A stretch of 64,000 nucleotides of DNA from Candidatus Buchananbacteria bacterium. GTDB lineage: Bacteria; Patescibacteriota; Patescibacteriia; 2-01-FULL-39-33. Below are positions 12,698 through 61,796 of the stretch, piece by piece; within the stretch, counting starts at the first letter, position 1; every line of letters starts with the position of its first letter. The position numbers were made by a program, and so were the translations under genes. The stretch spans positions 8,199 through 72,198 of the forward strand of contig JAUSEE010000001.1 in NCBI GenBank assembly GCA_030650095.1, written 5' to 3'. The notes under the pieces were generated by a model. That model saw only the letters and a program-made list of their open reading frames with translations, was not told the origin of the DNA and did not search any database.

Positions 12698-12727
12698 AAA
12701 ATAAATTATTAATTTTCTTGATTTTTG

Positions 12728-12741: not shown

Positions 12742-12860
12742 TGAAAACCTGAATTGGATACTTATCCAATCAAGCATTCTTAGACTTTTCTCGACCTTTT
12801 ATTTTTTAATAATATCCACAGTCTGATTACATTATACCACAAAAAACATAATTGTCTTAA

Positions 12861-14072: not shown

Positions 14073-14082
14073 TGATTTTAAT

Positions 14083-15150: not shown

Positions 15151-15178
15151 AAGTTTACATCCTAGTAGATTAACTGGT

Positions 15179-15565: not shown

Positions 15566-15592
15566 AATATCTATAATAAATTATTAATCTAA

Positions 15593-17338: not shown

Positions 17339-17341
17339 GGT

Positions 17342-17629: not shown

Positions 17630-17633
17630 AATT

Positions 17634-18257: not shown

Positions 18258-18293
18258 CTATGTTGGATTAATATTATGATGTTACTTTTGAAT

Positions 18294-19520: not shown

Positions 19521-19620
19521 GTTTTTTACTTAGCTTTTTAGTTGATCAGCTAGTTAGGATTTAGTCGTATTTATTTTATAAACATCGCCTAACAAGCCTT
19601 GAAACTATGATCTAATTAGA

Positions 19621-22569: not shown

Positions 22570-22641
22570 TAATCTTGGTAAAAAATAAAAATTATTCTTT
22601 CAATTTAAAGTATTATGGCTCTGTTTGATAAGAATGTTGGC

Positions 22642-26418: not shown

Positions 26419-26453
26419 ATTTTTAATTAGAAATAATTTAGAAATAATAATTT

Positions 26454-34250: not shown

Positions 34251-34253
34251 AAC

Positions 34254-34331
34254 GTCATTGCGAGGTACGAAGCAATCCTGTGTTTAATAAACCAGAAGAT
34301 TGCTTTGGTCGTTTCACTCCCTCGCAATGAC
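34254..34331. repeat. Palindromic hairpin element (family gtcattgcgagg...gaagcaatc / gattgctt...cctcgcaatgac)
   Basis: 24-nt arms with imperfect complementarity, read directly. Confidence 0.8.
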
Positions 34332-34352
34332 AAGAAAGCCATTTACCTCGTC

Positions 34353-36013: not shown

Positions 36014-36027
36014 CAATTAAATATTTT

Positions 36028-41729: not shown

Positions 41730-41760
41730 ATTATACTTGTAGATTTATACCAATAACTAG

Positions 41761-41832
41761 TGTCCTCAAGAGGAATTGAACCTCTATTTCAGGCTCCGCA
41801 AGCCGGCGCTCTATCCTTTGAGCTATGAGGAC
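41761..41832 (-). tRNA. tRNA, anticodon reads GCG (Arg?). CCA is not encoded.
   Basis: Acceptor GTCCTCA/TGAGGAC, D-arm GCTC-AAAGGATA-GAGC, anticodon arm CCGGC-TTGCGGA-GCCTG with one C/U mismatch, T-arm AGAGG-TTCAATT-CCTCT. Confidence 0.6.
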
Positions 41833-41857
41833 GAATAAAAGAATAATCTTTTAAAAA

Positions 41858-42361
41858 TTAAATCCTCAATAGACGGCGCAATCTTTCAGATAATGGTTCA
41901 GCTTCCCTTTCCAAATCTTCTTTTAAGAATTGCAACAGGAATTCCCTTATCCCAATAACATCCAAGCCGTCTAAATCAACAACCAATCTACCCCTAAGCG
42001 GATTTTTGAAATCCACGTATAAATTCTTAATGCCATGATCCTGATAAATGATAAAGAAATTATCAATATGTTTATAGAAAAAGAAGTTCTTGCCATGCTT
42101 TATGCCATCATTGGTGATAGTACAATCCACCAACTCCGGTTGCTTGAATTCATACATTATGACTACCAAATAAAACAAGACCAGGAAGACGGCAAAAAGA
42201 TAATTAATGGTGTATATCGCCCAACCAACCATTAGAGCAATAATTAAAAACGATATTAAATACCAAGCTACGCTCTTTTGATATTTAACATAATCATGGC
42301 ATTTCCAAGAAAAAACCACCTCGCTTAATTGTTGATTTTCTGTTTTGTTTGGCATGGACAT
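41858..42361 (-). CDS. Hypothetical membrane protein (two transmembrane helices plus a cytoplasmic domain)
   Basis: ORF track; hydrophobic hairpin; no family recognised. Confidence 0.45.
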   Translation of the reverse strand: MSMPNKTENQQLSEVVFSWKCHDYVKYQKSVAWYLISFLIIALMVGWAIYTINYLFAVFLVLFYLVVIMYEFKQPELVDCTITNDGIKHGKNFFFYKHIDNFFIIYQDHGIKNLYVDFKNPLRGRLVVDLDGLDVIGIREFLLQFLKEDLEREAEPLSERLRRLLRI

Positions 42362-42400
42362 ATTTTTAATAAAAATTATTTTATAATCTTTTTAAAATAC

Positions 42401-42631
42401 CTATAAACCGCACAAATGCATGCTAACAGCGGCTTTTATGGCTTTAAACCTATCTTCTGATAATTCCGGAAAAACATCTCTGATTTTTTGTTCAAATTTA
42501 TTCCAACTGCCATCATCATCTTTGTTTAAATCTTCTTCGACAAATTGTTCTATCCTCTCATTAAAGAGAGCTAATTCTTCAGCCGCGGTCATTTTTTCTT
42601 CATCAACTTCACTTTTATTTTCAAAATTCAT
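42401..42631 (-). CDS. Small acidic hypothetical protein (76 aa)
   Basis: ORF track; Glu/Asp-rich. Confidence 0.35.
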   Translation of the reverse strand: MNFENKSEVDEEKMTAAEELALFNERIEQFVEEDLNKDDDGSWNKFEQKIRDVFPELSEDRFKAIKAAVSMHLCGL

Positions 42632-42716
42632 GGTTAGAAAAATTATTAATTACTTTATCTCAAAAATTGGGATAAAAATTTATATGCGGAGAGGGTGGCC
42701 TGGCCTGCCGGTAGGC

Positions 42717-42868
42717 AGGGATTTACGGAATAATTTGCCACCAAAAAGTGGCAAATTATTCTGTCCTGGGTGGCCGCCAATCCTGCGCCAGCTCGGATTG
42801 GCTTAAAGTTTCGTTTCGACGCTCGGCTTCCGCCTTGCTTCTCACTCAACTTGCCACCCGTTCAAATC
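42717..42868. repeat. 152-bp structured element R, copy A. It is preceded by a displaced 14-nt tRNA-Ser(TGA) 3'-end fragment plus 25 nt of that tRNA's downstream flank (42658-42696).
   Basis: Near-identical to 43045-43196 (3 substitutions). Contains a 14-bp perfect stem (gaataatttgccac/gtggcaaattattc) and an 8-bp stem (gccaatcc/ggattggc). Confidence 0.8.
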
Positions 42869-42922
42869 CCGCTATCTCATATCTAAATTTTTATCCTAAA
42901 AATTGGGATAAAAATTTATATG

Positions 42923-43009
42923 CGGAGAGGGTGGGATTCGAACCCACGGTCCCCGTGAAGGGACTTCAGTTTTCAAGACTGACACATTCGACCACTCTGT
43001 CACCTCTCC
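42923..43009 (-). tRNA. tRNA-Ser (anticodon TGA)
   Basis: GGAGAGG acceptor, anticodon loop CTTGAAA, long variable arm, T-arm GTGGG-TTCGAAT-CCCAC. Confidence 0.8.
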
Positions 43010-43044
43010 ATCTAAAATTGTATTATCACTTACTGCAGAGAAGG

Positions 43045-43196
43045 AGGGATTTACGGCATAATTTGCCACCAAAAAGTGGCAAATTATTCTGTCCTGGGTG
43101 GCCGCCAATCCTGCGCCAGCTCGGATTGGCTTAAAGTTTCGTTTCGGCGCTCGGCTTCCGCCTTGCTTCTCACTCAACTTGCCACCTGTTCAAATC
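43045..43196. repeat. Element R, copy B. It is preceded by an 18-nt fragment (tgcagagaaggagggatt) matching the 3' end of tRNA-Ser(GCT) with 1 mismatch.
   Basis: See copy A. Confidence 0.8.
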
Positions 43197-43255
43197 TTAG
43201 CTTCTTTCATAAGCTGATTTGAGAATGAGGATAAACCACATTATCAAATCATCTG

Positions 43256-43345
43256 CGGAGAAGGAGGGATTCGAACCCTCGATACGCTTAAAAAACGTAT
43301 AACGGATTAGCAATCCGCCGCTTTCAGCCACTCAGCCACCTCTCC
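43256..43345 (-). tRNA. tRNA-Ser (anticodon GCT)
   Basis: Acceptor GGAGAGG, anticodon arm CGGAT-TGCTAAT-CCG, long variable arm, T-arm GAGGG-TTCGAAT-CCCTC. Confidence 0.8.
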
Positions 43346-43491: not shown

Positions 43492-44196
43492 TTAACTTCT
43501 TATTAAAACCAAGCCCCAAACCGTTTTATAGCCCGCTTCTTTTAATTTTTTGGCGCATTCCTCCAGAGTTGATCCGGTAGTATAGACATCGTCTACTATA
43601 ACAATCGGCTTATTATAATCGGCTTGCAAATTGACAGTGGTTTTGAAACTGCCGGTAATATTAACATGCCTTTTACTGGCGCCCAGACCCACTTGATGGC
43701 GATTGTACTTTATCTTTTTTAACAATTGATCATTAATTTTATTACCACCAATACCGCTGATGATATCGCAAATCAATTGCGATTGATTAAAGCCTCTCTC
43801 CAAAAATCTCCTAGGGTGAAGCGGCACGGGTGTTAAAACAAAAAAATCCCGCCAAAGGGGATTCTTGCCAAAGTATTCCACAAATCTTGGTTTCAAATGA
43901 TTAAAAATATCAGGAATAAAATTATATTTTACCAGATGTATCATTTTCTGGCTTAACTTGTTGTTCTCCAAAATTACCAACAGTCCATCCAGATTGGAAA
44001 TATGACGGCAATAGCCGCAAACCTGTCCGTCTTTGTTTTCCAAACCGCAAATCGGGCATAAATTATAATTATACAACCTTAATTGGCTCAAACATCTAAG
44101 GCAAAGCCAGTCGCCTTCAGCTCTACAAGACAAGCACTTAATGGGAAAAATAATGTCTAAAAATATTTTTTTTAATTTACTGCCAAACAGCTTCAT
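43492..44196 (-). CDS. comFC: ComF-family protein (competence; phosphoribosyltransferase domain)
   Basis: N-terminal Cys4 (CLSCR...CLRC...CPIC...CGYC) and the PRTase motif IVIVDDVYTTGST. Confidence 0.8.
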   Translation of the reverse strand: MKLFGSKLKKIFLDIIFPIKCLSCRAEGDWLCLRCLSQLRLYNYNLCPICGLENKDGQVCGYCRHISNLDGLLVILENNKLSQKMIHLVKYNFIPDIFNHLKPRFVEYFGKNPLWRDFFVLTPVPLHPRRFLERGFNQSQLICDIISGIGGNKINDQLLKKIKYNRHQVGLGASKRHVNITGSFKTTVNLQADYNKPIVIVDDVYTTGSTLEECAKKLKEAGYKTVWGLVLIRS

Positions 44197-44740
44197 CTAC
44201 TTTCCAGTCATCGCCTGTTTTTAAAACACTAAGTTGAACTTTGGAATAATCAATTATCGGTTCGGCTTGCTCGCCTTGGAATTTACTTAGCTGAAGCGAT
44301 ATTAAAACCATGGCCTTATCTGCGCTTAAATATATAAGCTGGTTATTTAGAGCCTTGGCTTCTTGAGCTTCAAAACCATTAGTTCCTATTCGAGAAGTGG
44401 CGATGAAACTATCAATGGAAGATTGCATTTTAGATGTGGACAATATTTTTAAATCTTCTAAATTCTTAAACTTGGCATCGCTGGAATAGCTGGCAAACCT
44501 CTCGGCAAAGGAAGAAGTAAGCGATTCTAGCCCCAAAGGGTAATCCTTTTCCGTGCTTTGTCTTTCGGCGCTAGGCGGAGGCAACAAATCAATTTGGCCA
44601 AGAGACGTGGGCTGATTGCCATTTTCATTTTCTGGCGGATTAACTTCGGCCGGTTTTTTATTGAAAAAAAATAAAAATATCAAAACTGCCGCCACTAAGG
44701 CCAGCGCTGAAATTAAAATTATTTTATTTCTTCTGGACAT
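44177..44740 (-). CDS. Membrane-anchored extracytoplasmic protein, possible VirB8-like T4SS component
   Basis: N-terminal transmembrane helix, ~150-aa periplasm-type domain, position directly downstream of virB4. The VirB8 assignment is speculative. Confidence 0.3.
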   Translation of the reverse strand: MSRRNKIILISALALVAAVLIFLFFFNKKPAEVNPPENENGNQPTSLGQIDLLPPPSAERQSTEKDYPLGLESLTSSFAERFASYSSDAKFKNLEDLKILSTSKMQSSIDSFIATSRIGTNGFEAQEAKALNNQLIYLSADKAMVLISLQLSKFQGEQAEPIIDYSKVQLSVLKTGDDWKVDEAVWQ

Positions 44741-44759
44741 GTTATTAAATATTTAATAT

Positions 44760-46658
44760 TTATTCTCTGGCTAACGACTGCTCGAATTCTTTCTTGGCTT
44801 GTTCAATTTCCAGTAGCTGCCTGGGATCAGAAGTTATCAATTGATCTTCCGAATAAGAAGCAACTACTCTTATGGCCGCATGCTTAGCGCCGGCAAAAAA
44901 GATGCCTTCACCCACACCGCATTCCAACAGCAAGTATTTTTCCCCTTCGGTAAGCAGGAATGTCTTTTGAATCAAACTGGCGGCAGCAGGCGACTGCTTC
45001 ATAAGAAGCTGTAAAGACGAGTTATTAACAATGGCTTGGCCATAAGGAGAAGTCAAAAAATCATTAACATCTTGGGTAATCGTGGTAACGCCCAAATAAT
45101 ACTTACGGCATCTTTTGACCAAGGCAAATATAAACTTGGCGCTATCCTCTCTTTGCATCAGCCACCAGGCTTCATCCACTACCAGTATCCTTCTTTTGGT
45201 TTCGCTTCTAACCACATTCCAAATATAATTAACGATGGTATAAATGGCCAGGGGTTTTAATTCATCCTCTAAATCACGCACACTGAAAGCCACCAATTGA
45301 TTATTCATGGCCACATTGGTGGGATTATTCAAGAGTCCGGCAAAAGTGCCTTCGGTGTATTTTTTTAATCTTAAAACTATATTTTCACCATTTTCCATGC
45401 CTTCCAAAATCTCTGCAAAATCCTGCATAATAGGCGGTTCCACCAGAGATAAATCAGTATTGGCTGTTATATCTTTTTTGGCGTAAGTCTCCAGCAGGGC
45501 TCTGTCGATTATGGAATCTTCTTCCGGTGTGATATCGCCGATCATCAGTTTAATCAAACCCTTGACTGTTATCACCGCTCCCCTGATGATATCATCGGTC
45601 CTGGCATCTTCGCCAATGGATCTGGGCAAATCAAAAGGATTTATCTTGCTCTCGGAATTAAGGGAAACATCAATATAGGTTCCACCGACAGCATCGCACA
45701 GATGCTTGTATTCCCTTTCGGGATCAATAATGATAACTTCGGTGCCAAACATCAAGCTTCTTAAAACTTCTAATTTTATGGCGTATGATTTGCCGGCGCC
45801 GGAAGTGGCAAAAACAACCGAGTTGGCATTTTGCAGAGAAAATCTGTCAAACAGAATCAAACTGTTATTATGCCTATTGATGCCAAAGAGCACTCCGTTG
45901 TCAGAGGTTAAATCGGAAGAAACAAAGGGAAAAGAACTGGCCGCCGGAGAGGTGTTCATATTGGTTAGAATCTGCAGATCATCGGAAGCAATGGGCAAAG
46001 TGGAATTAAAGCCTTGTTCGGCTTGATAAAAAACCCTTCTGGAATAAACCAAAGTGGAACCCAAAATATTTTCTACGCTTTCACAAGAATTGTCTAAGGC
46101 CTCCAGAGTCTTATCATAAACAGTTATATACAAAGCTGTCTGAAAAAAATGCTCAATGCCTTGGGTTAAATCATCCCTTAATTTTTCCATATCTCTTAGA
46201 GCCGTTTCCCGAAGCGGATCGCGAGGAGCGCCTTTTTCGGCATCAGAAATAAGTCCGGCTTGCAAGGCGCCGACTTTTTTCTTGAGCTGTTTTAAAATGA
46301 TAGGAGCTTTAACCGGATAAAAATAAATAGCCATATCAGCCGTAACATTAAGGTTGATAATGGGGGCAAACCAGCCCACATTTATATATCTGGGATATTC
46401 AATGACAAAAATCGTTTTGATAAAATAATCCCCCAATTTAATATACGAGCCGGTTACTTCCAGTGAAGCCGGAGAAATAAAATCACGCACCGAAACAATG
46501 CCCCGCCTATAAACCCTTTCTTCCTCCAGGGCTTTTTTGCTGGTTTGTATCTCTTGAGAGAGCATTTCTTTTCTTTGGCTGGCAGTCAAAGCCGGAGCCC
46601 GGTCCAGTTCCTGTGCTCTTGTTTTATCAACCTTATTCAGTTGACTTGGATCAAACAT
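44760..46658 (-). CDS. virB4: VirB4/TrbE/CagE-family type IV secretion ATPase
   Basis: Walker A ATSGAGKS, Walker B VVDEAWW, 632 aa (a short N-domain). Confidence 0.8.
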   Translation of the reverse strand: MFDPSQLNKVDKTRAQELDRAPALTASQRKEMLSQEIQTSKKALEEERVYRRGIVSVRDFISPASLEVTGSYIKLGDYFIKTIFVIEYPRYINVGWFAPIINLNVTADMAIYFYPVKAPIILKQLKKKVGALQAGLISDAEKGAPRDPLRETALRDMEKLRDDLTQGIEHFFQTALYITVYDKTLEALDNSCESVENILGSTLVYSRRVFYQAEQGFNSTLPIASDDLQILTNMNTSPAASSFPFVSSDLTSDNGVLFGINRHNNSLILFDRFSLQNANSVVFATSGAGKSYAIKLEVLRSLMFGTEVIIIDPEREYKHLCDAVGGTYIDVSLNSESKINPFDLPRSIGEDARTDDIIRGAVITVKGLIKLMIGDITPEEDSIIDRALLETYAKKDITANTDLSLVEPPIMQDFAEILEGMENGENIVLRLKKYTEGTFAGLLNNPTNVAMNNQLVAFSVRDLEDELKPLAIYTIVNYIWNVVRSETKRRILVVDEAWWLMQREDSAKFIFALVKRCRKYYLGVTTITQDVNDFLTSPYGQAIVNNSSLQLLMKQSPAAASLIQKTFLLTEGEKYLLLECGVGEGIFFAGAKHAAIRVVASYSEDQLITSDPRQLLEIEQAKKEFEQSLARE

Positions 46659-46683
46659 AAATAAAAAAATAAAAAATTATTAA

Positions 46684-47358
46684 CTACTGCTCCACATCTA
46701 ATTTATTGATATCAGCTATCTTCTGGCTTTCAGAAATAGTCGGATTATAGGTATTATAAAATAGTTCTATCAGTGATTGGGTGTTTAAAATAGAAACTCT
46801 AAGTCCCATGCTCATTAAGCCGGAAATTATTTTATCAACTTCAATGAAAAGCTCCTGATGGCGCTTGGAAAATTCTTTTTGGCTTAATTTAATCAGTTTG
46901 GTCGGTGAAACAACATCGGTGCTTCTTTCCCAAAAATTTCTTTTTTTGCCAAAAGACGCGTTATAATAAACCACTACGTAGAATTTTTTGGTCATGATAT
47001 CTCCTAATTCCACTAATTCGGAAATATATTTTCGGTATTCCGATGTTTGGAGTTTGAGTAAATCATTGGCCTGCTCCTCTTCGGCTCTTTTGATATCCGC
47101 CAAGTAATTATCCAAATTCAACTTCCGGGATTGTATCACTATTTGCAAAGTGGTATCCAAGGAATTTAAAAAAGATATATAGCCGGCCACAATGGCATTT
47201 TGTTCTTCTTCTGATTTCAAAGCAAAATTCATGCTGGATACCAGAAGAACGGATCGAAGAGTGCCATCTTTCATAATAACAGCATCATCCCTTATTTCAG
47301 AAATAGTCATGTAGCTTTGGGTGCTGGGTGTGGATTTTGTCGCTTTTCTGTTAGCCAT
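46684..47358 (-). CDS. Hypothetical protein between the PrgI-like gene and virB4. Possibly a detached N-terminal VirB4 domain.
   Basis: Position and size only. The VirB4 ORF lacks the ~200-aa N-domain seen in longer homologs. Confidence 0.3.
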   Translation of the reverse strand: MANRKATKSTPSTQSYMTISEIRDDAVIMKDGTLRSVLLVSSMNFALKSEEEQNAIVAGYISFLNSLDTTLQIVIQSRKLNLDNYLADIKRAEEEQANDLLKLQTSEYRKYISELVELGDIMTKKFYVVVYYNASFGKKRNFWERSTDVVSPTKLIKLSQKEFSKRHQELFIEVDKIISGLMSMGLRVSILNTQSLIELFYNTYNPTISESQKIADINKLDVEQ

Positions 47359-47379
47359 ACTTGCTTAACTTTAGCTATT

Positions 47380-47841
47380 TTATTTCTTTAAATTATTTAC
47401 ATGATTGATTACGCCTTCTCCTTGATAAACGCCGCCGGTATCAACTATCAGGGCTAATTCAGACAGATTAGAAGCATTGATAATCTTTTTTCTAACAGCC
47501 ACTTCCGGCCCCTTTTCTTCTTTGGGCTTTTTTAAACTCATTTTTATATCCGCCTCACTGATGGTTTTACGCCAAATTTTAAGCTTGGGATTTTTGATGG
47601 TAGTTATAAAATTAAGCAGGAAATTATGAAAATGCTGGCCGTTTATTTTAATGAAAGCAAAGGTAACGGTGATGACCAAAACCAGCAAGCCGGAAACCAC
47701 AAACAAAGAAAAATCAAAAATTTTATAAAAGATAAAAATAATGATTCCTCCTATTACCATCTCTATAAACTGGCGGACAGTTATGGGGCCGATTATCCTG
47801 TCTTCAACATCTAAAAATTGTGGTACGGTTATTTGTTCCAT
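47380..47841 (-). CDS. PrgI/VirB3-like small membrane protein
   Basis: EDRIIGPITVRQFIEMVIGGIII motif, two transmembrane helices, position upstream of virB4. Confidence 0.55.
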   Translation of the reverse strand: MEQITVPQFLDVEDRIIGPITVRQFIEMVIGGIIIFIFYKIFDFSLFVVSGLLVLVITVTFAFIKINGQHFHNFLLNFITTIKNPKLKIWRKTISEADIKMSLKKPKEEKGPEVAVRKKIINASNLSELALIVDTGGVYQGEGVINHVNNLKK

Positions 47842-47905
47842 AAACCATGAATAGTAAATTATAAATTCAAAATATCAAGCTCCAAATAAATATCAAATCT
47901 CAAAC

Positions 47906-48274
47906 TCAAATTGGCTTATTTTTGCTCTTTTCTATTATAGCAGCAAATATTTTTAAAAGCTGACAGGTTTCATCCAAAAGCAGCTCCATTTTCACCTTAA
48001 GCCGCGGATTGGCTTCAATAATCAGTTTTAACCAATAGACTGTCTCTTTAGCTTCTTTACGACATATCCTCATTCTAAATTGAAAATCTTTTTTTGTTTC
48101 AGTTTCATTAGCTTCTCTATAATTAGCCCCTAGCGATAACCCCGATCTAACCACCTGCCTTACCAATACATTATTAACAATGTTTAGTGGAATATTCTTC
48201 GCCATTTTTATTATTCTCTTGCCATATTCCAGTGTTCTATCTTCAAGGTCATAACTATTTGTAATTTCTACCAT
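47906..48274 (-). CDS. Four-helix-bundle protein (23S rRNA intervening-sequence protein family)
   Basis: YGKRIIKMAKNIP...QVVRSGLSLGANYREANE core typical of this family; 122 aa. Confidence 0.65.
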   Translation of the reverse strand: MVEITNSYDLEDRTLEYGKRIIKMAKNIPLNIVNNVLVRQVVRSGLSLGANYREANETETKKDFQFRMRICRKEAKETVYWLKLIIEANPRLKVKMELLLDETCQLLKIFAAIIEKSKNKPI

Positions 48275-48328
48275 TGTGATTTATTTGATATTTGAAATTT
48301 TGAATTTGTTATTTTATATTTTTAGTGT

Positions 48329-49819
48329 TTAATATCTTAAATCTTTATTTATCTCCCCAATAGAGTTGAATTCTTCTATAGATAAGGTGGGCTTATGGCT
48401 TTCTATTCTCTCATTAATTATATCATCAATGCTGCGTCCCTGTCGCATGCTTTCCTGGCCCAACAACCTGTAAAATCTGTTAATTTCATTTTTATGCCAG
48501 GCTTCTACCGCTTCTAATTTCTTTATATAGGAATCTTTCTCCAGCAGTTCTATCTTGTCTTTTATTTTAGCGGTAGCCTCATGAGGCGTCTGTCCCAGCC
48601 GGCGGAAATTTATCAAAGTCATAGTGCCCAGCTCTTCCACTGGCCCGACCAGTGTAGTGTTTATCCTAACGCCATCCACCGATGGCTTGCCAAATCTGAT
48701 ATTTCTGGGTGAGAGTGTTGATTTGGCCATAGGCTGAGGCTGTGGAGCAATAGGAACTTTAGTTTCCAGCGGTTTTATGGCCGCTGGCAAAACTAGTGGA
48801 GTTGGAGCCACCGGCACAGGAGGAACAATTTTAATTTTTTCTGGAACATTAATGGGTTGAACTTTTCTGATTTGATTAAAATCAGTTATCTTCGGCCGAA
48901 TCATTAAATCATCGCCTTGCGGTGATTTTATCACCGGCAAACCGTCTTCTTCTTCAATTTTAGGCGCCAAAGACAAATCCGGTTTGACTAGCCTTTTTTC
49001 TGCCACTTTCGGCTCACTTACCGCTGGCGCCGGTTCTTTTATTATCGAGCCATTCTTTTTGGCTTCCAAAGTGGTTTTAGCCGGAACAAAGGGCTTTTTA
49101 ACCGGAAAGTTAATTGGTTTTTTTTCACTGGATGTTTCCCCTTCTTTAGGCAAAAGTCCTTGGCTTATTTTTTCACGAATTAAAGCAATCACTTTTCCCG
49201 CTTCGTCCTCGGTCATGGCCAAACCGCCTACCTTACGGCTTTTCTTTAAAACTTCCAATGTTTCCATTTCGTCTCTGATATCTTTTAGCCGCGCCATAAT
49301 TATATTTTTAAAACGGCTTAAAATAACTTCATCTCCATTAATGCTGTAACCGGACTGCGAAATAATAAGTTCGGCCAAAGAAGAATAATCATGTGCTTTT
49401 GGCTTACTAGCAGAAGAAGAAATTATTTTTTTTATTTCTTCGTCGTCTTCGGGTGAAAAAGAAATGTGGGTATTAGGTTGAACTGGTTGTTTTATTTGTG
49501 GCTCTTTACTGTCTATTTCAGCCGATCCGCCCAAGCCGTTAAGCAATTCTTCCACCCCGCTGATTTGATCTTTGAGCGGCATAAACCTGCTTAAAACGGC
49601 AGCCAGAGCTATTTTTTTTACAGTCTCTTCGTCTTTTCTAACCGCTTTTTTAAGTTCGGGCAAAAAATCAGCCAGTTTAACCGAACCTAAAATAATTCTG
49701 GAAATCAACTTGATTATTTCTTTGATTTCACTATCGGTCAAAGCAAAAGATGCCAGCCAAGCATTGGCCTTTTTTAATTCTACCACATCATCAAAAATAT
49801 TTTTAATTTCTTCCGACAT
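48329..49819 (-). CDS. Hypothetical protein with a Pro/Lys-rich linker (T4SS accessory?)
   Basis: ORF track; low-complexity middle; no family recognised. Confidence 0.35.
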   Translation of the reverse strand: MSEEIKNIFDDVVELKKANAWLASFALTDSEIKEIIKLISRIILGSVKLADFLPELKKAVRKDEETVKKIALAAVLSRFMPLKDQISGVEELLNGLGGSAEIDSKEPQIKQPVQPNTHISFSPEDDEEIKKIISSSASKPKAHDYSSLAELIISQSGYSINGDEVILSRFKNIIMARLKDIRDEMETLEVLKKSRKVGGLAMTEDEAGKVIALIREKISQGLLPKEGETSSEKKPINFPVKKPFVPAKTTLEAKKNGSIIKEPAPAVSEPKVAEKRLVKPDLSLAPKIEEEDGLPVIKSPQGDDLMIRPKITDFNQIRKVQPINVPEKIKIVPPVPVAPTPLVLPAAIKPLETKVPIAPQPQPMAKSTLSPRNIRFGKPSVDGVRINTTLVGPVEELGTMTLINFRRLGQTPHEATAKIKDKIELLEKDSYIKKLEAVEAWHKNEINRFYRLLGQESMRQGRSIDDIINERIESHKPTLSIEEFNSIGEINKDLRY

Positions 49820-49831
49820 TTTAGATTATTT

Positions 49832-52510
49832 TTAGATGTCTTTTAACTGATCAGCTCTCTTTTGTTCTGTAGAAGCAGGAGCTGTACCAACTGCCTGTCT
49901 TCTGACTTCGGTAGCGATCTTGCTAGCCAAAGCTCCACCCTCAGTGGAAGTACTTAGTGTTTTGATAACATTAATATTCATTTTTTCACCAGCTATTTCC
50001 ATTTGGGAACCACTTCTATTTAAACCTTTCATAAATTCAGCGTCTTTAGCTGATACAGTAGCCATAACATCTTGAAGTATGGCTCGTTTTTCGGCATTAA
50101 CTTTTACGCCACCCACGGTACTATCAGCAATATTAACTTCATTGAATGAGGCGCCAGAAGCTAGAGCATTTTTAAACGTTCTTTGGTATTGTAATTTATC
50201 ACCAGTGGCAATCTCGGCTTCTGTTATTTTATTAATAACAGCTTCAAAACTATCAGATAATTTCTTTTTGATAATTGGTGATTGATCTTTAAACTGGTTG
50301 GGACTAACCAAGTCACCAAAACTCTTAACAAATTCCTCGCTGACCTCCTTCATCTTTTTGCCAATATCACTGCTATTGTTGGACACAAAAGTTCTAATAG
50401 AGTCAACATCATCGGTATTAGTCTGGTCAAAGGTCTGCATGACATGATTAAAGCTGGTAGCTTTATTAAATCTGTCACGCATTTTTTCACCGCTATCAGT
50501 AAGTTTACCACTGCCATCACGTTCAAAAGTGTTATGATCAACCTTGCCATAAATCGCTGTCTTTTGTTTATCGGTTAAATCACTATACATTTCACTTTCA
50601 TCTTTTTCTTTGGTATGTTTAGCCATGAATGTAGCCAATTCATCACCTTTGGGTGTAGAACCTTTAGGCGCCAGGGCATCGTTCAAAGATAAAAGCTGAG
50701 TTTCACTCAAACTGCCCATCATTTCATGAGCTTTAACCTTGCCCGTCCTAACATCAGAAGTAAAGGCATCTGTGCGGAAAGTTTTGCCGTCATCACCCAT
50801 ATAAACCGTATCATAAGCCAAGCCCGGATTATATTTTTTGGTGTTGTCCATAAAGGTAGCAGCCAACTCTGGCGGCAACATCTTTTTGGCATCGTTGATC
50901 AATTTAATATTTTCGGCTCTGTTGGCTGTGTCATCATCTCTAAACATGCCTTGCTTCATCATAGCTTGAGTAGCGGCAATCTTAGCATATTTATCACCTT
51001 TAGTAGCCAGTGATCGCAAGTCTTTTTCACTCATGTCATCAACCTTAAGGGCGCTGGCTCTAGTAGTAATCCTTTCTTGTTCGGCTTTAGCTTTGGTGGT
51101 AGCCAGTTTAATTTGTCGTTTGTCCACTGCTTGCCCACCTAGCCTGCCAAGTATGGGTATTTTTCTAGCTAGCGGTATAGCCATAGCACCAGCTAATACT
51201 CCGGCGCCAGCCAAGCCGGCGGTGCCAGCTACAGTACCAATAGCGGCCTTTTTGCCCCATTTTTGCAAACCAGCCACGCCTTTGCCGGCCCACTGGGCTC
51301 CGGCCACACCGGTTTTTTGGCCAAAAACCAAACTGCCCACCATTAAGCCGATAATTATTAAGAAATCAAAAACGTTTACCGGATCTTCTAATTCCGATAA
51401 TCCTATTTTCTTATTCAAATCATCTGTTTTACTTAGAAGTATGCTGGCGCCATCATTAACTTGGTATGCTCCCTCTTTGCCACTGCTAATTGTACTAGGA
51501 TCTTGAACATTAATTGAACCGCTGAAAAACGACAGGTAAAGAAAAAACAACATTATCGGTCCCACCACCAAATATTTAGTTATTTCACTCCACCACATGC
51601 CGGCGTATTGCTGGCCTTTGGGGAAAGTGGTGAGAAGATAGGCCAGGGGTGACAGAATAATCAAAAACCAGAGCATAACGATCCTATAAACCAAAATAAT
51701 GGTAATAATGGCAATTACCACTACAGCCACCACCGATAATATTAGGGCAAATAAAAGCGTTTTAATGGCTGCCCCAGGGCTTAAACTGCCAGGAACTGGC
51801 TCGGTCCAATCAAACTGTCCGGCATCAATGCGGTAAAGCTTGTCCAAGCCTAGAGCTAAAAGTATGATATTGCCACCACTGCTAACACCCTGTATGGTCC
51901 CGGCAAACCAGAGTGTTAAGACTTGGGAACCGTCAATCATAATGCCGGTAAAAGTTTTGGAGAAATTTATTAAAACCGCCATCACCAGCAGTTTGGGCAG
52001 AAGCTGGCGATTATAATTGGGCACCCTTAAAATCGTGCCCACAGCTATGGCTAAAAGAATAACGATAAAGAAATTATTAGCCACATCACGCACAATCGCC
52101 CAACCATTGATAACTATTTGATTATCTAAGAAATGATTATAACTGGCTACTTTAACCATGACTATTATTAAAAGATTAACCAGCCAGCTGAAAAAGGTGG
52201 CGATATAAAAAACTATCCAAGCAAAGACATTGGCAATGGAATTTTCGGTGCTGTTAGCATCATCGCCTGCCTTAGGCACGCCACTCGCCATACAATCATT
52301 ATAAATACGTTTAAGTTCACTTCCATCCGGATCAGTTGTGTTACTTGTTTTACTGGCAGCATAATCACCGCATTCTTTGTCTCGTGAATCAATAAAGCTA
52401 CTTCCAGCAGCTATTGCCTGAACAAAAGAAACGGAACTACTAAAAACTACCACCAACAAAAGAGTAGTTAGTAGTACGGCGCTGATTAATTTTTTTCTTT
52501 TGGTGGTCAT
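49832..52510 (-). CDS. VirB6/TrbL-like polytopic membrane protein with N- and C-terminal soluble extensions
   Basis: Signal peptide, 6-7 transmembrane helices in the middle, Gly/Ala-rich segment, long C-terminal domain; 892 aa. Confidence 0.5.
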   Translation of the reverse strand: MTTKRKKLISAVLLTTLLLVVVFSSSVSFVQAIAAGSSFIDSRDKECGDYAASKTSNTTDPDGSELKRIYNDCMASGVPKAGDDANSTENSIANVFAWIVFYIATFFSWLVNLLIIVMVKVASYNHFLDNQIVINGWAIVRDVANNFFIVILLAIAVGTILRVPNYNRQLLPKLLVMAVLINFSKTFTGIMIDGSQVLTLWFAGTIQGVSSGGNIILLALGLDKLYRIDAGQFDWTEPVPGSLSPGAAIKTLLFALILSVVAVVVIAIITIILVYRIVMLWFLIILSPLAYLLTTFPKGQQYAGMWWSEITKYLVVGPIMLFFLYLSFFSGSINVQDPSTISSGKEGAYQVNDGASILLSKTDDLNKKIGLSELEDPVNVFDFLIIIGLMVGSLVFGQKTGVAGAQWAGKGVAGLQKWGKKAAIGTVAGTAGLAGAGVLAGAMAIPLARKIPILGRLGGQAVDKRQIKLATTKAKAEQERITTRASALKVDDMSEKDLRSLATKGDKYAKIAATQAMMKQGMFRDDDTANRAENIKLINDAKKMLPPELAATFMDNTKKYNPGLAYDTVYMGDDGKTFRTDAFTSDVRTGKVKAHEMMGSLSETQLLSLNDALAPKGSTPKGDELATFMAKHTKEKDESEMYSDLTDKQKTAIYGKVDHNTFERDGSGKLTDSGEKMRDRFNKATSFNHVMQTFDQTNTDDVDSIRTFVSNNSSDIGKKMKEVSEEFVKSFGDLVSPNQFKDQSPIIKKKLSDSFEAVINKITEAEIATGDKLQYQRTFKNALASGASFNEVNIADSTVGGVKVNAEKRAILQDVMATVSAKDAEFMKGLNRSGSQMEIAGEKMNINVIKTLSTSTEGGALASKIATEVRRQAVGTAPASTEQKRADQLKDI

Positions 52511-52736: not shown

Positions 52737-55700
52737 TTATTGATTTTTATTTATGGTAAGTGAAACTGTTACCGGGTCATTAGATTTATTCCAATTATCA
52801 TAAACAGTTATTTCCACCTCCACAGTACAACTATCATTATTGCAATCAGTGTCCGGAATACTGCTAACTTTATTAAAATCATAAAGATGGTACAAAAGGA
52901 AAGGATTTTCCGGATTGGTTCTGTTTCTAAGCGACACACCGCTAACTTTTGATTTTTCTCCATCTTTCCAATCAATGACATAGGCGGTAAGAGGCAGCTG
53001 ATCAGGATCAATCAAGGTGGTAAAAGCCAGTTTGGCCAAACCAACACCATTATAAATAGTGGGATCGATGCTATTGTTTATTATTTTGCTGGTTACTTTT
53101 GGCTTAACATAACAAGGCTGAACACTAGATTCTTCCCTTTTATCGCCAGTAGCGCCACCATTGCATTCCCCACTGGGTATGGATAAATAATCTTCCCGGC
53201 TAGGATCCTCCTTATATACTCCGCCTCTATCAGCCACTGGGCCATCTAGACAGTCGCCATTGGCCGCGCGATTATCACCTTCACATTTATTCCAGCGCCA
53301 CTTCCAAGCTCCATAGCTTTGAGCGAATAACTGCTGTAGACCATCTTGGCTATGAATTTCGCCCATTCTGGCTTGATAAGGAGGGGCAAAACCGCCCAGT
53401 CGCGGTGGCTCATAAAGCAAGGGAGTATTAAAAATGCCGGCGCGGCTGCTCCAATTAACCGGATTTGGACTGCCGGAAGGAGAAACTATGGCGCCAAAAG
53501 GCTGATAATCAGATGATTGATAAGTGGAGGCATCAAGCGCAGAAACATCCCCGCCGGATCCACCGCCAAACCAACCACCCAATTGGCCTAGAAGCCCTTG
53601 GAGAAACTCAATAAATACTCCGCTACCGGGCACTTCGGCTGCATCTGATCCATTATATGTAAAATCAATATTATCCAAGAATTTATTAAAATCAAACGGA
53701 TCATAATAATAATACTTGCCCGTAGTTTCACCCTCGGCTTTATTTCTGGCTTCGGCATCATTATTGATAAAGCCCGATCCTGGAGTTACCCGATTAGCAT
53801 AAGCCTTATTGGTGCCCGAAGAAGTTACCACTCTCACTAAGCTGTCACAATAATTAATATCAAAATCACCTTTGATAGTCATACGTATATAGACCGCGTC
53901 GGCTTCGGCTGTGGATCTAACAAACCAAGACGCGCCCAAAATATCACCATCCAAATCCGGAATCGGATCAGTGGCGCCACCAGTAATGCCACCAGCTTGC
54001 GTATCATCTATGATTTTCAGTCCCATGAGCGGACCAAAATAAACTCCTAAATCTCCCTGAGACTGCAACAACTGTGTTAATTGTTCAATTATACCGCCAA
54101 TATTACCTGTAGCTATTTCATAAGGGATAGGTATTGGCAGACAAATCAAGAAACCGCCTTCTCCACCTAAACCGACACAAAATGGTATGGCCGCCCAACC
54201 TTTCCACTCGCGCTTATCAGTATCATAGGTTAGGGTTTTATTAACCGGAATCATAACAACAAAGCCCACATCATGCTGAAAACCAAAACCGGTAACTTTA
54301 AGCTTGATTCTATCAACATAAGGGAACCTAAAGAGCGAGCGGTAATCATCTTTGATATTCATCGGACTAAAGTTCATTTGCTGGCCGGTGTTGATATCCG
54401 AAAAACCAGATACCACTTCTTGGGCATCAGAGCTTAAAGACAGGGCTACGCCTGATTTAGAAAAATCCACATTAAATCTCTTTTTTTCCACGCAATAATC
54501 CAAAGGCAATCTGTCGTTATAACCGCCAACCTCGTTTAATATCTCGCCCTGAAGCTGATCTACCGGCCACCATTGCAAGCATTGTTTGGAATTGTTGGGA
54601 TCCACTAGTAAGCAATAGCCGTAACTGCCGTAGAATAAATTATTGCCTTCCAAATACCGGCAAGACAGCGCATCTTCGGCCGGATAAATACGGCAACTTC
54701 GGGTTAAATAATTATCAGTTAAATCATTTGGCGTGGACAGATCATTGCTAACCTTTAGAATCGGCTTAAGAGAAATATCGTCAAATAAAGCCGTCCCGCC
54801 CAAAGCGCATTCAGTGAGCTGGTTGTTATCATTACAACCGCCTATATTAACATGATTTTTCAATTTAATTCTTATTTTATCGGTGTTAAGGGAGGGATTA
54901 AACTCAAACATTCTTTTGGTCCAAGACAAGCCACTCACTAAAGACAATTCGGTGGGATATTTCCAGTCGCCCCAACTGCCTCCTTCGGTGTGTTCCCGGT
55001 ACTGAATCTGCGATTGGATTACTTCATTTCCATCGGGATAATTCAAGCCAGAAGAATTAATCCAGCCGGAAAGGATATAGGGATCACCGCCGAAAACATC
55101 AATTTCCTCCGACAGGGCTTCGTAGAAAGAGTTTAAAATCAAATGCCTGGATCCGTCCGGACTGCTCTTGGTATCTTTGGCTACGCTAAACTTATAATCA
55201 TGCCAACCCACAGCTTCCGACTTATACGATTCACTGTCATCACCGGTAGATTCCGAGGGGCTCCAGCCCAAAGGTTCGGTGGAATTGGTTACCACCGATT
55301 CAAAATTGCCGTTGGTAATAGAACCGGCATTGCCGAATTGAGTCATTAGATAATAAGGGAAATAACCTGCCACATTAATGCCGCCGGGGAAATTCTTGCC
55401 CACGGAAGCATAGCCGGTTTTATAAAAATCTTTCTCGCTGTAATTTTCATCGGTTATTTCGCCTGATTTCAAAATAAAATTATTACAGACGCCTTTTTCA
55501 TCAACCGAAGCGCACAGCCCCAAATCCAAGCAACGGTCGTTATTGCCATAAATCGGATCAACACTATTGGGATCATCTTTTTCATAGGTAGTACAATAAA
55601 GCCAATTGTAACAAGTTCTATCCGGCTGGACTTTTAAAATAACATTAGCATCGCCTTTGGCCGGCGGGGTAGCCGATATAGGCGTCGTCGGATCTTGGTT

Positions 55701-58700
55701 TGGCTTGTCCATTTGCTCCTTGTAACTGGCGCCGGCATCAAAAGTGAGGTAGTTAACATTTCTGTCTGAAACACTTTTAGCTGAATAATTAATCGAGCCT
55801 CTGTCGTTAAACAAAACACAACCGGAATTATAATCTATTAAGCCGTTGCAGCCGGTGTAATCAACTTTGGCGGAGAGGGCATAATAAACGCCTGATTGCA
55901 CCAATCTTAGATTATTAACTGCTTGGGGCGCAGGGATAACTAATTTTACGAGGCAAGTCGTATGGGAATTATAAATTATATAAAACCGGCCGCTGGCAGA
56001 TTTGGGCGAACCTATATTGCCACCGGTGATATTCATACTGTCATCAGGTGAAACCATTAGCCCGGTGCAGGGAGTCGAAGATGCTATTTCGATTTTAGCT
56101 TTGGTAGTAGCACTCTCATCCACCGAGAAAGAATAAAGCGTGTGAGACAATAGATTTATATTTTGTGACAAGCCGGTGCCATTTCCATCCCAATGATCTG
56201 GAATATCATTGCCATCAGCATCTTGACTTAAATCAACATTTAATATTTCATTTTTATAAACTTCGGTTATCGGATCAATGTATTCGGTGCAACTGCTTTG
56301 TTCGGCCGGGCAAAGCCCCACCCAATTCTGATAGCTGGCGGTGGTGCCACCGGGCGTCGGCCAAGCATCTTCACTAGGCATTCTGTAGCTGTTAAACCAG
56401 CCCACGGGCTGGACTTTATTTTCCGGAGAACCGGTGCCAATGGTTTGAAGATAAGTGACATCGCAGGGTTCGGTAGTGCCTTTCTTATACCACTGCGCCT
56501 GGGCTTGGCCTAAATCCGTCCTGTATTCACAAACCCTATCTCTGGGGTCTTTGAAATAAGAAACATTCCTGGAGCCGACAAATTCCTGGCACCAGAGGGC
56601 GCTGGCCTGGCATAAATCAGTGGCGTATCTATCGGGCTGATTTTTAAGATAAGAATCAGCATAGCCAACAACTTCATCTTGATTGTTAATTTTGGGCAAG
56701 CCGTAAGCTAAGCAACCCTTATCTTCCGATTTGCAATTATATTTAGAATCATTAACTATGTAAACAAAATTGTCACTGGGCACAGTTACCTGCGATGGGT
56801 CGCCTGAATTATAAGTTGCGCCGTAATAAGAATCGGAATTGTAGGTATCTATTAATTGTTCGCAACCCACGGCATCGCGACGGCACAAATTTTCAAAAGA
56901 TTTTAAAAACCAATTCTTATTGGAACGATCACGATACTCTTGACAGCCGATCATTTTTCCCGGATTGCTCCTCTCTGGATTTAGAGCATCGCCGGCACCG
57001 TAAGGCTGACTAATAATATTGTCGCAAACAAAAGGAGTAAACCAAGAATTTTCAATGGCATAGACGCTTTGAGGCAATTCTTTAAGCAAAATATTATCAA
57101 TGTAAATCACCTGTCCGCTGGGGATATTTATTTCTATATTCTGCTCGAAATAACCAGTGCCACTGCCCCAGCTAACTTGCACCGGGCCAAGATCATAACG
57201 ATTCCATTCATTGGTTATGGGAATAGGCAAATCTCCGGCTGTTACCACATCCGGATGGCCAACTATAAATGAGCCCTCTGGCGGCGCCTGTGAAAACCTG
57301 ATGGAATCAAGATCAAAGCCAGCATTGCCTTTAGCCCAAAAACTAATGGCATAAGATTTGTCTTTTTTGATTAAGACTGTTTTGGAGAACTGGCGAGAAC
57401 TATTGAGGCTGTTGGTAAGAGAATTTCCGCCCGGATGGGTAGCTTCGCTGGCTATCGTACCTCCCTGCCAATCCATGGCGCCGGATTCAAAATCAGACAA
57501 AAAGATATTCCTAAAGCTGCTGCCCTTATTGCCGGTGTATTCCCGACAGCCTTTTAAATTAGCCGAGCAAGTCTGGCCTTGGCCGGGAATGGCCATATAA
57601 ATACACTCGCCAAACTGATTATAATAGCCTTGATTGTTTCGACAATCCTGGGCGGCTTCAGCCTCATCATTTTGAGTTTGGGTTCGGCGGTAAGGATGGC
57701 AATCGCTGGAAACATAAATAACCCGTGACAACAACCGGTAATGAATATTGCCACTGACATCATAAAATTCACGGCAGTCCGGATTGGAATTCAAATCAGA
57801 AGACAAACAAGCGGCATCGTTAGTGTTTGGATCATCACTGGGCACAGGATCACCGCAAACATTGTCGCCGTTTAAATTATTAGGGTAGCTTAAATTGGTA
57901 CAGGGAGGAGTGCCCACGCCAGAAGTATCATTGGAGCCTTTCAAAGTGAAAACTTTAAGCTGATAACCGGTGGTATCACTGCCTTCCCAAGTATAATAAG
58001 TGACTTCATCGCCGTAGGCATCAGGCTTCTGGCAAGTCCTAAACTGAGTATAGTATTCCAAACCTTCTCCGCCTCTGGCTACTTCGTCTAAATTGGTGAA
58101 TTCGTCACAGCCGGCAGCGGCGGCAGAACAATATTGAATAGGATCTTTGGCAATGAATTGCTTGTATTTGGCCGAAACAAAACTGGTCGGCTCCTGCTTA
58201 TAAACCTGATAGCCGGCGCACTCCGACGGACAGACATCAGCCGAAGTGATTGTTCCGGGCACAGCCGGATCGCCATTTACCGGAGTATAGAGTTCGCAGT
58301 TCATCTCGCTTTTTATGCAAACACTGGAATAATTGGCACAAGCCGGATTGCGGCCGAATATAACCTGCTGCAGTTCGGTTAAATTGGTAGGCCAGTTACC
58401 AGCAGAGGTTAAATAGCAATCGTAATAATCGGGCGCTTTTTTAAGATAAGTTAATTGCGAGGCCGGCCTCTGGCTGGGGTTGTAAGAGGTGTAAGATGTA
58501 GGAATATTAATGCCGGCTGAAACCGCTTCTAGTTTGACAGCGTCAAAGTAAGCTTCTTTTAGACCGCTGCTACCTTGGTTGATAAACAAGCGCGGACTAA
58601 CTACTTCGTCCGGGCTGTTCCAAACAAAGCTAGTGCTAACCGTTGTCCATTTATACAAATCCGCTTCGGCAAATGTATTCGGTTCGGTGGTTATGCTGGC

Positions 58701-61700
58701 GTCATCGTTAAGAGATACAAAATAACTGCCTATTTTTTGAATATAAACCCTGGCTGATAAAATATATTTATTGCCATTTATTAAAGTAAGCGGACTAAGA
58801 GAAGCGGTGGCCGAAAAATAAGCGCAATGTTGAGAGTTTGAATCAAAATCAGATCTTAAACCGATAGATTTATCGCCATCTGCGCCGGAATTAACGACAA
58901 ATATTTCACAGGAGCCGTGATTGCCACTAGCGCCGGGCTCCCCTATCCAATGATTTAAATCACTGTAATAATCTTCAAAACTGCCATCAACTATCAAGTT
59001 GCTGCCCAAATCTGATTTCACTCTGATAAACTGGCTGCAGCCGACAGCTGATGAACTGCAAGCCTGGGCATCGCGATCAAAGTATATTTCTGAATCGGTA
59101 TTATCTTGAGAGCCAATATTAAGCCAAACATCACCGGTAGTGCAAGAACCAAGCGCTTCTTTTAGGCTAAAGTCATCAAAAAATACCGTACCCGTTGTGC
59201 CGGCATTAGTGATAACCCTTATTTCTATGCTATCACCGGCCTGGATATTCTGGGTGCTGAAATTAACGGAATATTCTTGCCAATTATCGCTCAAAAGGCC
59301 AATGGTTTGACTGCCAACTTCCAAACTGGAAGAAAATACTTTGACATCAAAACTGCCCAAGCTGATATTGCCGCGCAAATAAAATGATAATTTATAATTC
59401 TTGTTCGCCTCTACGCCGGAATTAACTGACAAGGTGGTTGAAAGGGGCGTGGTATTATTAAAACTCACACTCTCCAGTGAATACGAGCCGGTACGCTTGC
59501 TAATGTCGGATCTAAATTGCCTATTGGTATCATTTTGATAGCTTTCCTGCCAAAAACGGGCATCCCAACTGGCATTACCGATTAATTCAAAACTGTTATT
59601 GAAAGGAGTTAAAATATCAATGGAGTTCAAACACTTATCCAACGAGCATCTCACACCGTCAAAAGGCACGGTGCAAGACTCCCCGCTAAAATCACAACCG
59701 CCGTCAGTGGCACAAACTTTATCCATCACTATGCCGGCGTTAGCGGAATAAGCCGTTTGCTTCCATTGTTCTACTTCTAAACCGGAAACTGTACAACCAA
59801 CCAATGTATTGCAAGTTTTAAGTGTTTTTTCACTCTCGCTATTTAGCCAAGTGTTATCTTTGATATTATACAGTGTGCTGTACCACCGGCAACCGGCCGA
59901 CTGGGAACTGCAATCGCTATAATCAAGAGTATTGGCCAGATAAGACCCGGTGGTGCCATTTTTCGATTGGAAAGTTTGGCAAGTGTTGAAGCGCGGCTGG
60001 CAATTGGTGGAGTTTAAATTCCAAATTTTTCTTTCTTCGGTGCAATAGCCATAAGCCGTGCAATTGCCATCGGAATCTTCGGTTAAGCATTGCTGTTCAT
60101 CAGCGCAATACTGATTGCGAACCACCGATCCGTCTTGAGAACTGGCTCTGGTATTTTGATCGCCATAACCCTCACGGCGGCAGAAAAGTTCCGGCGCTTT
60201 TAAAACCCACTGGGGATCAATCAGATTTTGGAAGGTGGAAGAAGCATGATTAAATTCTTTGAGCAAATCGCCCAAGGTGTAATTCTGCTGTTCCTGTTTG
60301 GACTGGCTGATATACCTAGCGGCGATTTCCCAACCAACCGGCACGATTCTGTATTTTCTTAAAATAACAATATTTCTTAAAGAAAAAGATTCCTGCGGAT
60401 TGACATTATCAATCGGCGGCACAAATTGCCTGTTTAAAATCGAGGCCGGCAGATCTTTGACTAATTTCTTTTCCCTGATCGCTTGGGACAAAATGGGATC
60501 TATCACGCAATCAGTCGGGCCGGGATTTATTTTATTAGCTTCGGTGCAATTGGTTAATTTGTTTAAAATATCATATGGACCGCCTATGGCCAGATTGCTT
60601 TCGATTAAGTTTAAAAATCTTTCTTTGGCGCCAATGGAACCTTCCACATAAGGCGATGATTCCGGATTAAGAAGTGAAGCAAAGCGGGAAAGATTGGGCA
60701 GATTAAAGCCTTTATTTCCGTCCGAGCTGCCACTCTTAAAATAACCGGTTTTTAGGTTCTCTAAAAGTTGGCCGACTAAGGTGTCCAAAAATGTCTGTAT
60801 AAAATCCCAAACAGTTCCAGTGAAAGTGGAATCTTCTTTACCAGCTCTTTCTTGAGCTACTTCGTGTTGGTTTTTTACCATAGTGCCGGGAGTCAAAACC
60901 CAGCCGGTTAGGGTTTTTAGATCTTTAAAACCTTGATTGATGGAGGCTTCCAAGGCGGAAACACCGGTTTTTTCTTTAACCTTATCCATCAAAGACGAGC
61001 TGGTTTTTAAATAGATGCCAATATCGTTTTCGCTGGCATTTAAATAATTGCTGTATTCAACATTAAAATTAGCATCAGTAATGGCTGATCGCCAGTTTTT
61101 AACCATGCCGGTAAAATTACAGGTTGGTTTCTTGATCCGATCGCCTCTTAAGCTGGTTTTGATCATCAGTTCCACATTAAAATTGGGCCGGCATAAATTA
61201 ACGCCGAATTCCTTGTCTATTTCATCAATAAAAGTGCCGGCGGCATTATCGGCCGTGTTTTTCAAATAAGCGCCGATGCCTTCGGTGATAAACAACGGCT
61301 TTTGGCCTTTGCCGCCGGAAGCGATCCAAGAAGCGGTATCATAAGCCAGTTGTTTGGAAAAAGCGCTTAACATGGATTTCCAAGCGCCAGCCAAAACATC
61401 TCTCCAAGTCTGTTTTTCTACCTCTCTTAAGCTATCAGCGGCGATGTGTATTTGGTTGTTTTCGGTGACAACAACATTCTGGCATTGGCTGGCATTAATA
61501 GCCGACTGCACAGCTGTTTTCATAGCCTGGCTACAATCAAAAGTCACGCCATTTGCTGTTCCTGTTATAGGTACAGGAATACATTCTATGGCTAGAGCTT
61601 CGGCTAGCGCTTTTCCATTACAGGCTATAGCAGATTCAATCGCCGCGCCCGAGCCGGCAGTAGCTTCAGCCGCAGTTAGAGCTAACGTCCCCATTGTACT

Positions 61701-61790: not shown

Positions 61791-61796
61791 AAAAAA

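Follow-up and report, generated by a model that had tools for sequence, protein, structure and literature searches.

A chromosomal Patescibacteria-type type IV secretion operon beside comF in a Candidatus Buchananbacteria genome

The 64,000-nucleotide stretch of DNA analysed here (the window; contig JAUSEE010000001.1 of a Candidatus Buchananbacteria bacterium, assembly GCA_030650095.1) contains at positions 44177-52510 a genuine type IV secretion gene cluster, arranged as a tight operon on the minus strand. The reading that we consider probable is that it encodes a chromosomal, vertically inherited type IV secretion system (T4SS) of the Patescibacteria type, in a member of the class ABY1, which derives from monoderm conjugation machinery of the mating-pair-formation class FATA (MPF-FATA) and is no longer conjugative. 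The monoderm ancestry is proposed because: (i) the best model for the VirB4 ATPase is that of the CD1110 family; (ii) the nearest plasmid VirB4 proteins come from Firmicutes and Actinobacteria, and (iii) the order of the genes is that of plasmid pCF10. Systems of this kind, including their comF/recG/radA neighbourhood in ABY1 genomes, are already known (Quinonero-Coronel et al. 2025, PMC12102498). What is new here amounts to small additions: a near-universal subunit of predicted VirB8 fold in ABY1, an uncharacterised 496-aa protein family, fusions of pilins to other domains and variable four-helix-bundle cassettes. A central part in the life of these ultrasmall auxotrophic bacteria on other cells is generally ascribed to the Patescibacteria T4SS. 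Over 2,400 genomes with the system have been catalogued, and the window provides a typical ABY1 case, with nothing decisive on the substrate.

The seven minus-strand open reading frames (ORFs) of the cluster encode, in order, a VirB6-like polytopic protein (892 aa, 49832-52510), a lineage-specific soluble protein (496 aa, 48329-49819), a TIGR02436 (23S_rRNA_IVP) four-helix-bundle protein (122 aa, 47906-48274), a PrgI/VirB3-like protein with two transmembrane (TM) helices (153 aa, 47380-47841), a TrsD-like protein corresponding to a detached VirB4 N-terminal domain (224 aa, 46684-47358), a VirB4 ATPase of the CD1110/MPF-FATA type devoid of that domain (632 aa, 44760-46658) and a VirB8-like bitopic protein (187 aa, 44177-44740). 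All the ORFs are intact and the gaps between the genes are of 12-64 nt. They are followed on the same strand by the gene of a ComFC-type ComF protein (43492-44196; TIGR00201, E 3.5e-25) with a double zinc ribbon and a phosphoribosyltransferase domain, whose start overlaps the VirB8-like gene, the last one of the T4SS, by 20 nt. A scan for promoters and terminators did not resolve the operon boundaries, the number of terminators being that expected from shuffled sequence. The original prediction, made from the letters of the sequence, had placed a seven-gene T4SS-like cluster plus comF at exactly these coordinates, and the ORF listing and the family scans confirm it.

The 632-aa protein scores 348 bits against NF045971, the CD1110-family VirB4 model (cutoff 325, E 8e-104, model positions 151-729), and carries a Walker A motif, ATSGAGKS, at residues 284-291 and a Walker B motif, ILVVDE, at 491; hence its first identification as a VirB4 ATPase with both motifs holds. 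Its best solved relative is the C-terminal domain of Thermoanaerobacter VirB4 (4AG5, E 3e-48), with the proteobacterial TrwK at 4e-7. Proteobacterial VirB4 models match it with E values of 1e-9 or worse, and the CedB model yields 42.8 bits against a cutoff of 700. An identical protein (100%) occurs in a Candidatus Buchananbacteria metagenome-assembled genome, and the identity to the nearest plasmid VirB4 proteins, those of Firmicutes and Actinobacteria, is 28-36%. The 224-aa ORF located just before it matches VirB4 models over their N-terminal portions (NF045975, positions 93-236, E 2.5e-12; CD1110, positions 2-128) and the TrsD/TraD family NF041427 (E 4e-7), and it has no meaningful sequence relative in the PDB. 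The first of the two genes ends in a clean stop, and 25 nt of AT-rich spacer separate it from the ATG of the second. For comparison with relatives, 80 loci (L001-L080) from species-representative genomes of Buchanan-, Falkow-, Magasanik- and Uhrbacteria were used, whose VirB4 proteins are 68-91% identical to that of the window; counts of gene presence cover only the loci with enough flank. Since TrsD is present in 79 of 79 loci, and since the VirB4 homologues that span the whole query are, among the matches listed, all of about 630-670 aa, the split into TrsD and motor is fixed across the lineage. The suspicion that a VirB4 N-domain has become detached as the 224-aa ORF is thus borne out both by the model matches and by this constancy.

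The membrane components were identified with different degrees of confidence. The 153-aa protein matches PrgI (PF12666) with 32.9 bits, above the threshold of 27, and has the two expected TM helices, at residues 20-38 and 46-64, as anticipated for a PrgI/VirB3-like subunit. The 187-aa protein is not detected by the Pfam VirB8 family at the sequence level; it consists of a TM helix at residues 7-25, a disordered linker and an NTF2-like domain closest to those of VirB8, DotI and PrgL, a bitopic layout that supports its earlier designation as VirB8-like. Sequence profiles mostly miss such proteins, and the published VirB8 matches in Patescibacteria amount to about 50 in all, mostly from ABY1 (PMC12102498); the structural evidence described here indicates that ABY1 operons do encode such a subunit, which is near-universal among the relatives, the gene being present in 69 of 75 loci, and which gives experimentalists a concrete target. 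The weakest of the component calls is that of the 892-aa protein, probably an extended VirB6-like channel protein. Its match to the Pfam TrbL/VirB6 family is sub-threshold (E 1.4e-4, 22.1 bits, threshold 25.9), and TrbL is the sole family recurring among its orthologues, in 11 of 32, always below threshold (best E 4.6e-5). Its hydrophobicity profile shows an N-terminal signal or TM segment and about seven hydrophobic helices between residues 92 and 445, whereas the C-terminal half, some 450 aa long, is hydrophilic. This layout agrees with the extended VirB6 type of PMC12857230, and its gene holds relative to PrgI and VirB4 the place that PrgH has in pCF10. A profile of 32 orthologues compared with the PDB sequences gave low-complexity matches only, to the C-terminal half. 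Hence topology, position and recurrence of TrbL speak for the VirB6/TrbL-like assignment originally made, while the family scores stay short of it. Comparison of VirB6, the VirB8-like protein, PrgI and TrsD with single pCF10 proteins by hhalign and BLASTP gave weak collinear matches (E 0.009-0.03) that are unusable as evidence; with hhalign, the 892-aa protein against PrgH was uninformative and the 187-aa protein against PrgL gave a weak match.

No ORF of at least 100 aa in the 64-kb window matches a relaxase, VirD4/TcpA or VirB9, VirB10 and VirB11, so that the lack of these genes, first noticed in the vicinity of the cluster, extends to the whole window. The sole match to T4SS-DNA_transf is a sub-threshold P-loop match inside VirB4 itself. 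Past the right end of the window the contig runs for 3.7 kb, with ksgA, two major facilitator superfamily transporters and FemAB, and then ends; neither a relaxase nor a coupling protein is found there, and the conjugative module whose presence just outside the window would have spoken against the original prediction does not appear on this side. Together with the component families, the lack of a relaxase and of a type IV coupling protein (T4CP) supports the first description of the cluster as a minimal T4SS in the monoderm or Candidate Phyla Radiation style. The same traits characterise the published Patescibacteria systems. Within MPF-FATA, VirB4 proteins of Patescibacteria have been reported to form a monophyletic clade, with members in 2,407 of 3,035 assemblies; VirB4 is accompanied most often by TrsD, besides PrgI/VirB3, VirB6 and arrays of VirB2; relaxases are rare, T4CP homologues are seldom close to virB4, ksgA lies nearby, and comF, recG and radA accompany the ABY1 loci (PMC12102498), Buchananbacteria being placed in ABY1 in that dataset. 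The system of the window shares with them, including that of Southlakia epibionticum (SEML1_0006-0019; Wang et al. 2023, PMC10633639), the MPF-FATA VirB4, the separate TrsD, PrgI/VirB3, a probable VirB6 and VirB2-like pilins, as well as the conserved chromosomal location without nearby relaxase or T4CP and the neighbours comF, recG, radA and ksgA. Nothing essential differs. A VirB8-fold protein is clear here, whereas in S. epibionticum no structural homologue of VirB8 was detected, and neither the 496-aa family nor the four-helix-bundle cassettes are mentioned in the main text of PMC12102498.

With the conjugative MPF-FATA systems the resemblance is partial. The core order VirB6(PrgH), VirB3(PrgI), VirB4(PrgJ), (PrgK), VirB8(PrgL) of pCF10 is shared, and pGO1 has the same TrsD-type split of the VirB4 N-domain. 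However, unlike the Prg/Pcf system of pCF10 and the Trs systems of pGO1 and pSK41, the cluster lacks relaxase, T4CP, a PrgK-type hydrolase and a PrgB-type adhesin, possesses VirB2-like pilins, is not part of a mobile element and encodes a VirB4 distant from those of plasmids, as the identities given above indicate.

The gene order VirB6, 496-aa protein, PrgI, TrsD, VirB4, VirB8-like is fixed in the 80 loci. Besides TrsD and the VirB8-like gene, PrgI is present in 77 of 77 loci and the 496-aa protein in 68 of 68, and a recognisable VirB6 is found in 43 of 55. In 30 of 60 loci the first recognised gene after the VirB8-like one is comF, its place being taken elsewhere by radA, DsbA or a pilin gene; the two downstream arrangements look like the result of one inversion of a conserved housekeeping block. 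radA and recG lie within 10 kb of the operon in 22 of 34 and 26 of 34 loci, respectively. Beyond comF the window has a trio of minus-strand tRNA genes, tRNA-Ser(GCT), tRNA-Ser(TGA) and tRNA-Arg(GCG) (41760-43345), and a conserved 167-aa ORF lies among them; the Ser/Ser/Arg trio follows comF also in many relatives and is part of the ancestral block. Because the gene order is fixed, the GC content of the cluster is like that of its surroundings (0.394 versus 0.403 for the window) and the tRNA trio is shared with relatives, the cluster is a chromosomal block passed on by vertical inheritance rather than an island. The synteny comparison that the original prediction had suggested thus returned a core cluster, and the integration hotspot that it had seen in the tRNA genes is not supported by the same data. 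The alternative, in which the cluster would be a degraded or cryptic integrated conjugative element that entered at the tRNA genes and lost its relaxase and coupling protein, could draw on the three tRNA genes within 2.5 kb, on the homology of the components to the machinery of Firmicutes integrative and conjugative elements and plasmids, and on a large serine recombinase gene that abuts another tRNA-Ser at 1428-2959. That recombinase, however, is 41 kb away, and no integrase adjoins the cluster; moreover, the composition does not depart from that of the flanks, the ORFs are intact and closely spaced, the order is constant with VirB4 at least 68% identical in 80 species-level genomes, and the tRNA trio occupies the same place in relatives. 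The island reading is effectively refuted by synteny, and we regard it as scarcely credible.

Pilin genes were missing from the first list of parts and are located about 8 kb from the operon. Two plus-strand genes at 35108-36900 encode VirB2-like T4SS pilins of 301 and 290 aa, which score 36.6 and 33.9 bits against PF18895 (threshold 26.6). Pairwise comparison shows a near-identical core, at about residues 70-127, followed by unrelated C-terminal domains: the first pilin carries an M15 peptidase domain (Peptidase_M15_3, E 2.8e-8), a fusion kept only in the closest relatives, and the second an acidic domain of no family. The pair looks like a modular design, a pilin anchor plus a displayed domain, or else like the product of recent gene conversion. 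The pilin genes are preceded on the same strand by those of a membrane-anchored beta-propeller protein and a DsbA-like thioredoxin (33000-35111), and the three kinds of gene travel as one module, the order beta-propeller, DsbA, pilin being conserved in several loci, for instance L003, L005, L031 and L051. Since the module directly adjoins the VirB8-like gene in other genomes, it is assigned to the T4SS. Pilins with enzymatic C-terminal domains offer experimentalists a concrete target.

From what is established for other T4SSs, a working scheme can be drawn. PrgI would anchor VirB4, and VirB6 and VirB8 would make the membrane channel. Docked on PrgI, the split VirB4 would power the assembly of the channel, the extraction of pilins and the formation of a VirB2-type filament reaching the host, and macromolecules would then cross without the participation of a coupling protein or a relaxase. 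More speculatively, the M15 domain of one pilin might stand in for the missing VirB1-type wall-cutting activity, and the 496-aa protein might act as a cytoplasmic adaptor. A role at the interface with the host in aid of epibiotic growth, be it the export of proteins or the uptake of host material, is favoured over DNA self-transfer. S. epibionticum cannot grow epibiotically without the T4SS and its pilin array (PMC10633639; see also PMC12857230), and the view put forward in the original prediction, host contact or uptake rather than conjugation, agrees with the published one (PMC12102498, PMC10633639).

A more specific function, DNA uptake in the manner of ComB of Helicobacter pylori, deserves separate consideration. 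Here the pilus or channel would bring in host or environmental DNA, ComF, with ComEC encoded elsewhere, would import single strands, and RadA and RecG would process them for transformation or as a source of nucleotides. ComB is likewise a T4SS that works in the absence of coupling protein and relaxase, and the cluster of the window stands beside comF, with the 20-nt overlap, the half of the loci in which comF comes next, the frequent proximity of radA and recG, and the comF association of ABY1 reported in PMC12102498 all pointing in that direction; DNA import has been proposed for the Patescibacteria T4SS both there and in PMC11665869. Yet ComB belongs to a diderm system with homologues of VirB7, VirB9 and VirB10, none of which exists here, and the VirB4 of the window is much nearer the Firmicutes conjugative types, to judge by its 348 bits against their model, its 42.8 bits against CedB and the poorer proteobacterial scores. 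In S. epibionticum, where the T4SS is essential, ComEC, ComF and DprA are dispensable for fitness (PMC10633639). In the other half of the loci comF does not adjoin, and the inversion-like pattern means that the linkage may reflect synteny and not function. In addition, the type IV pilus, with which Com proteins are usually partnered, is encoded by a complete cluster in the same window. The comF link that had been taken as a sign of DNA uptake is thus weak evidence, the overlap notwithstanding, and we hold DNA uptake to be unlikely, though the stronger of the two alternatives.

The proposal of a non-conjugative Patescibacteria-type T4SS at the host interface has its own weak points. The clade assignment is indirect, being based on VirB4 identities of at least 68% to those of 80 ABY1-type genomes versus 28-36% to the nearest plasmid proteins. 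The VirB6 assignment is below the curated thresholds. The search for conjugation genes covers the window and the 3.7 kb to its right, all on one contig of the genome, so that a distant T4CP or relaxase is possible, and VirD4-like matches do lie far from virB4 in many genomes (PMC12102498). The essentiality data come from another class, Saccharimonadia. The pilins, with 290-301 aa, are far longer than a canonical VirB2 and, instead of building a filament, may serve to anchor exported domains in the membrane, and the wall-cutting role of the M15 domain is conjecture about a fusion of narrow distribution.

The 496-aa protein gave no family in the Pfam and NCBIfam scans and no informative fold match, and neither a TM helix nor a signal peptide was found in it. 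In its predicted model, disordered linkers rich in proline and lysine connect three helical domains that are modelled with confidence; the two residues together account for 30% of positions 225-390. The family is large, with 2,798 clusters (50% identity) at E<=1e-3, of which the best 150 are nearly all full-length, and it is always encoded between VirB6 and VirB3; uncharacterised as it is, it constitutes another concrete target for experimentalists. In the closest relative, L001, an extra 289-aa ORF of no family (5958-6827), absent from the window, lies between the VirB6 and 496-aa genes.

The 122-aa protein belongs to TIGR02436 (E 6e-20), an Avd-like family, in agreement with the four-helix bundle first read from its sequence. 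Among the 80 loci there are 25 copies of TIGR02436 genes, always on the operon strand, and they occupy five different slots, VirB6|496-aa protein, 496-aa protein|PrgI, PrgI|TrsD, TrsD|VirB4 and VirB4|VirB8-like; a single operon can contain as many as three. Nineteen of the 25 lie inside the operon span, which represents 46% of the bases (rough binomial p of about 0.002, uncorrected for kinship). In L001, whose VirB4 is 91% identical, a TIGR02436 gene (8355-8699) likewise occupies this slot between conserved flanks, and BLASTP found no similarity between its product and that of the window. By this distribution the gene is a variable cassette and not a core part of the T4SS. A bolder combination of these elements can be imagined, in which the ABY1 operon, in translational coupling with ComF, would be a true import machine supplying a RadA/RecG pathway with host DNA or nucleotides, with the 496-aa protein replacing the coupling protein, and in which, separately, the hypervariable TIGR02436 cassettes would serve as functional, fast-evolving accessories and not as passengers; taken as a whole, this is distinctly improbable.

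Upstream of the VirB6 gene, a giant secreted protein of 3017 aa is encoded on the minus strand at 52737-61790. It has 84 cysteines, an N-terminal hydrophobic segment and weak CBM_4_9 matches, and the PDB contains no meaningful sequence relative of it. In 20 of 51 loci the VirB6 gene is preceded by a recognisable homologue, a frequent but not universal association. A TSP3-repeat protein precedes it (region 52737-62612, minus strand), and the linked pilin module includes a DsbA-like gene.

The type IV pilus cluster of the window extends over 9003-20739 on the minus strand and comprises PilM, a PilO-like protein, PilB, a response regulator, a PilT-like protein and PilC, together with a major pilin, a prepilin peptidase and three pseudopilins; the genome thus has genes for this pilus as well as for a T4SS within 35 kb. 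Beside it, at 20764-27569 and also on the minus strand, are three large ORFs in a row (601, 1258 and 371 aa) that match neither Pfam nor NCBIfam. The Rfam search of the window gave nothing beyond four tRNAs. The fourth, tRNA-Ser(GGA), is overlapped on the opposite strand by the 3' end of the serine recombinase gene, which is XisF/Ccr-like and encodes 503 aa. In an assembly made independently from the same sample, the sequence is broken between this tRNA gene and a thioredoxin gene at 3599, and an integrated element may lie off the left edge of the window.

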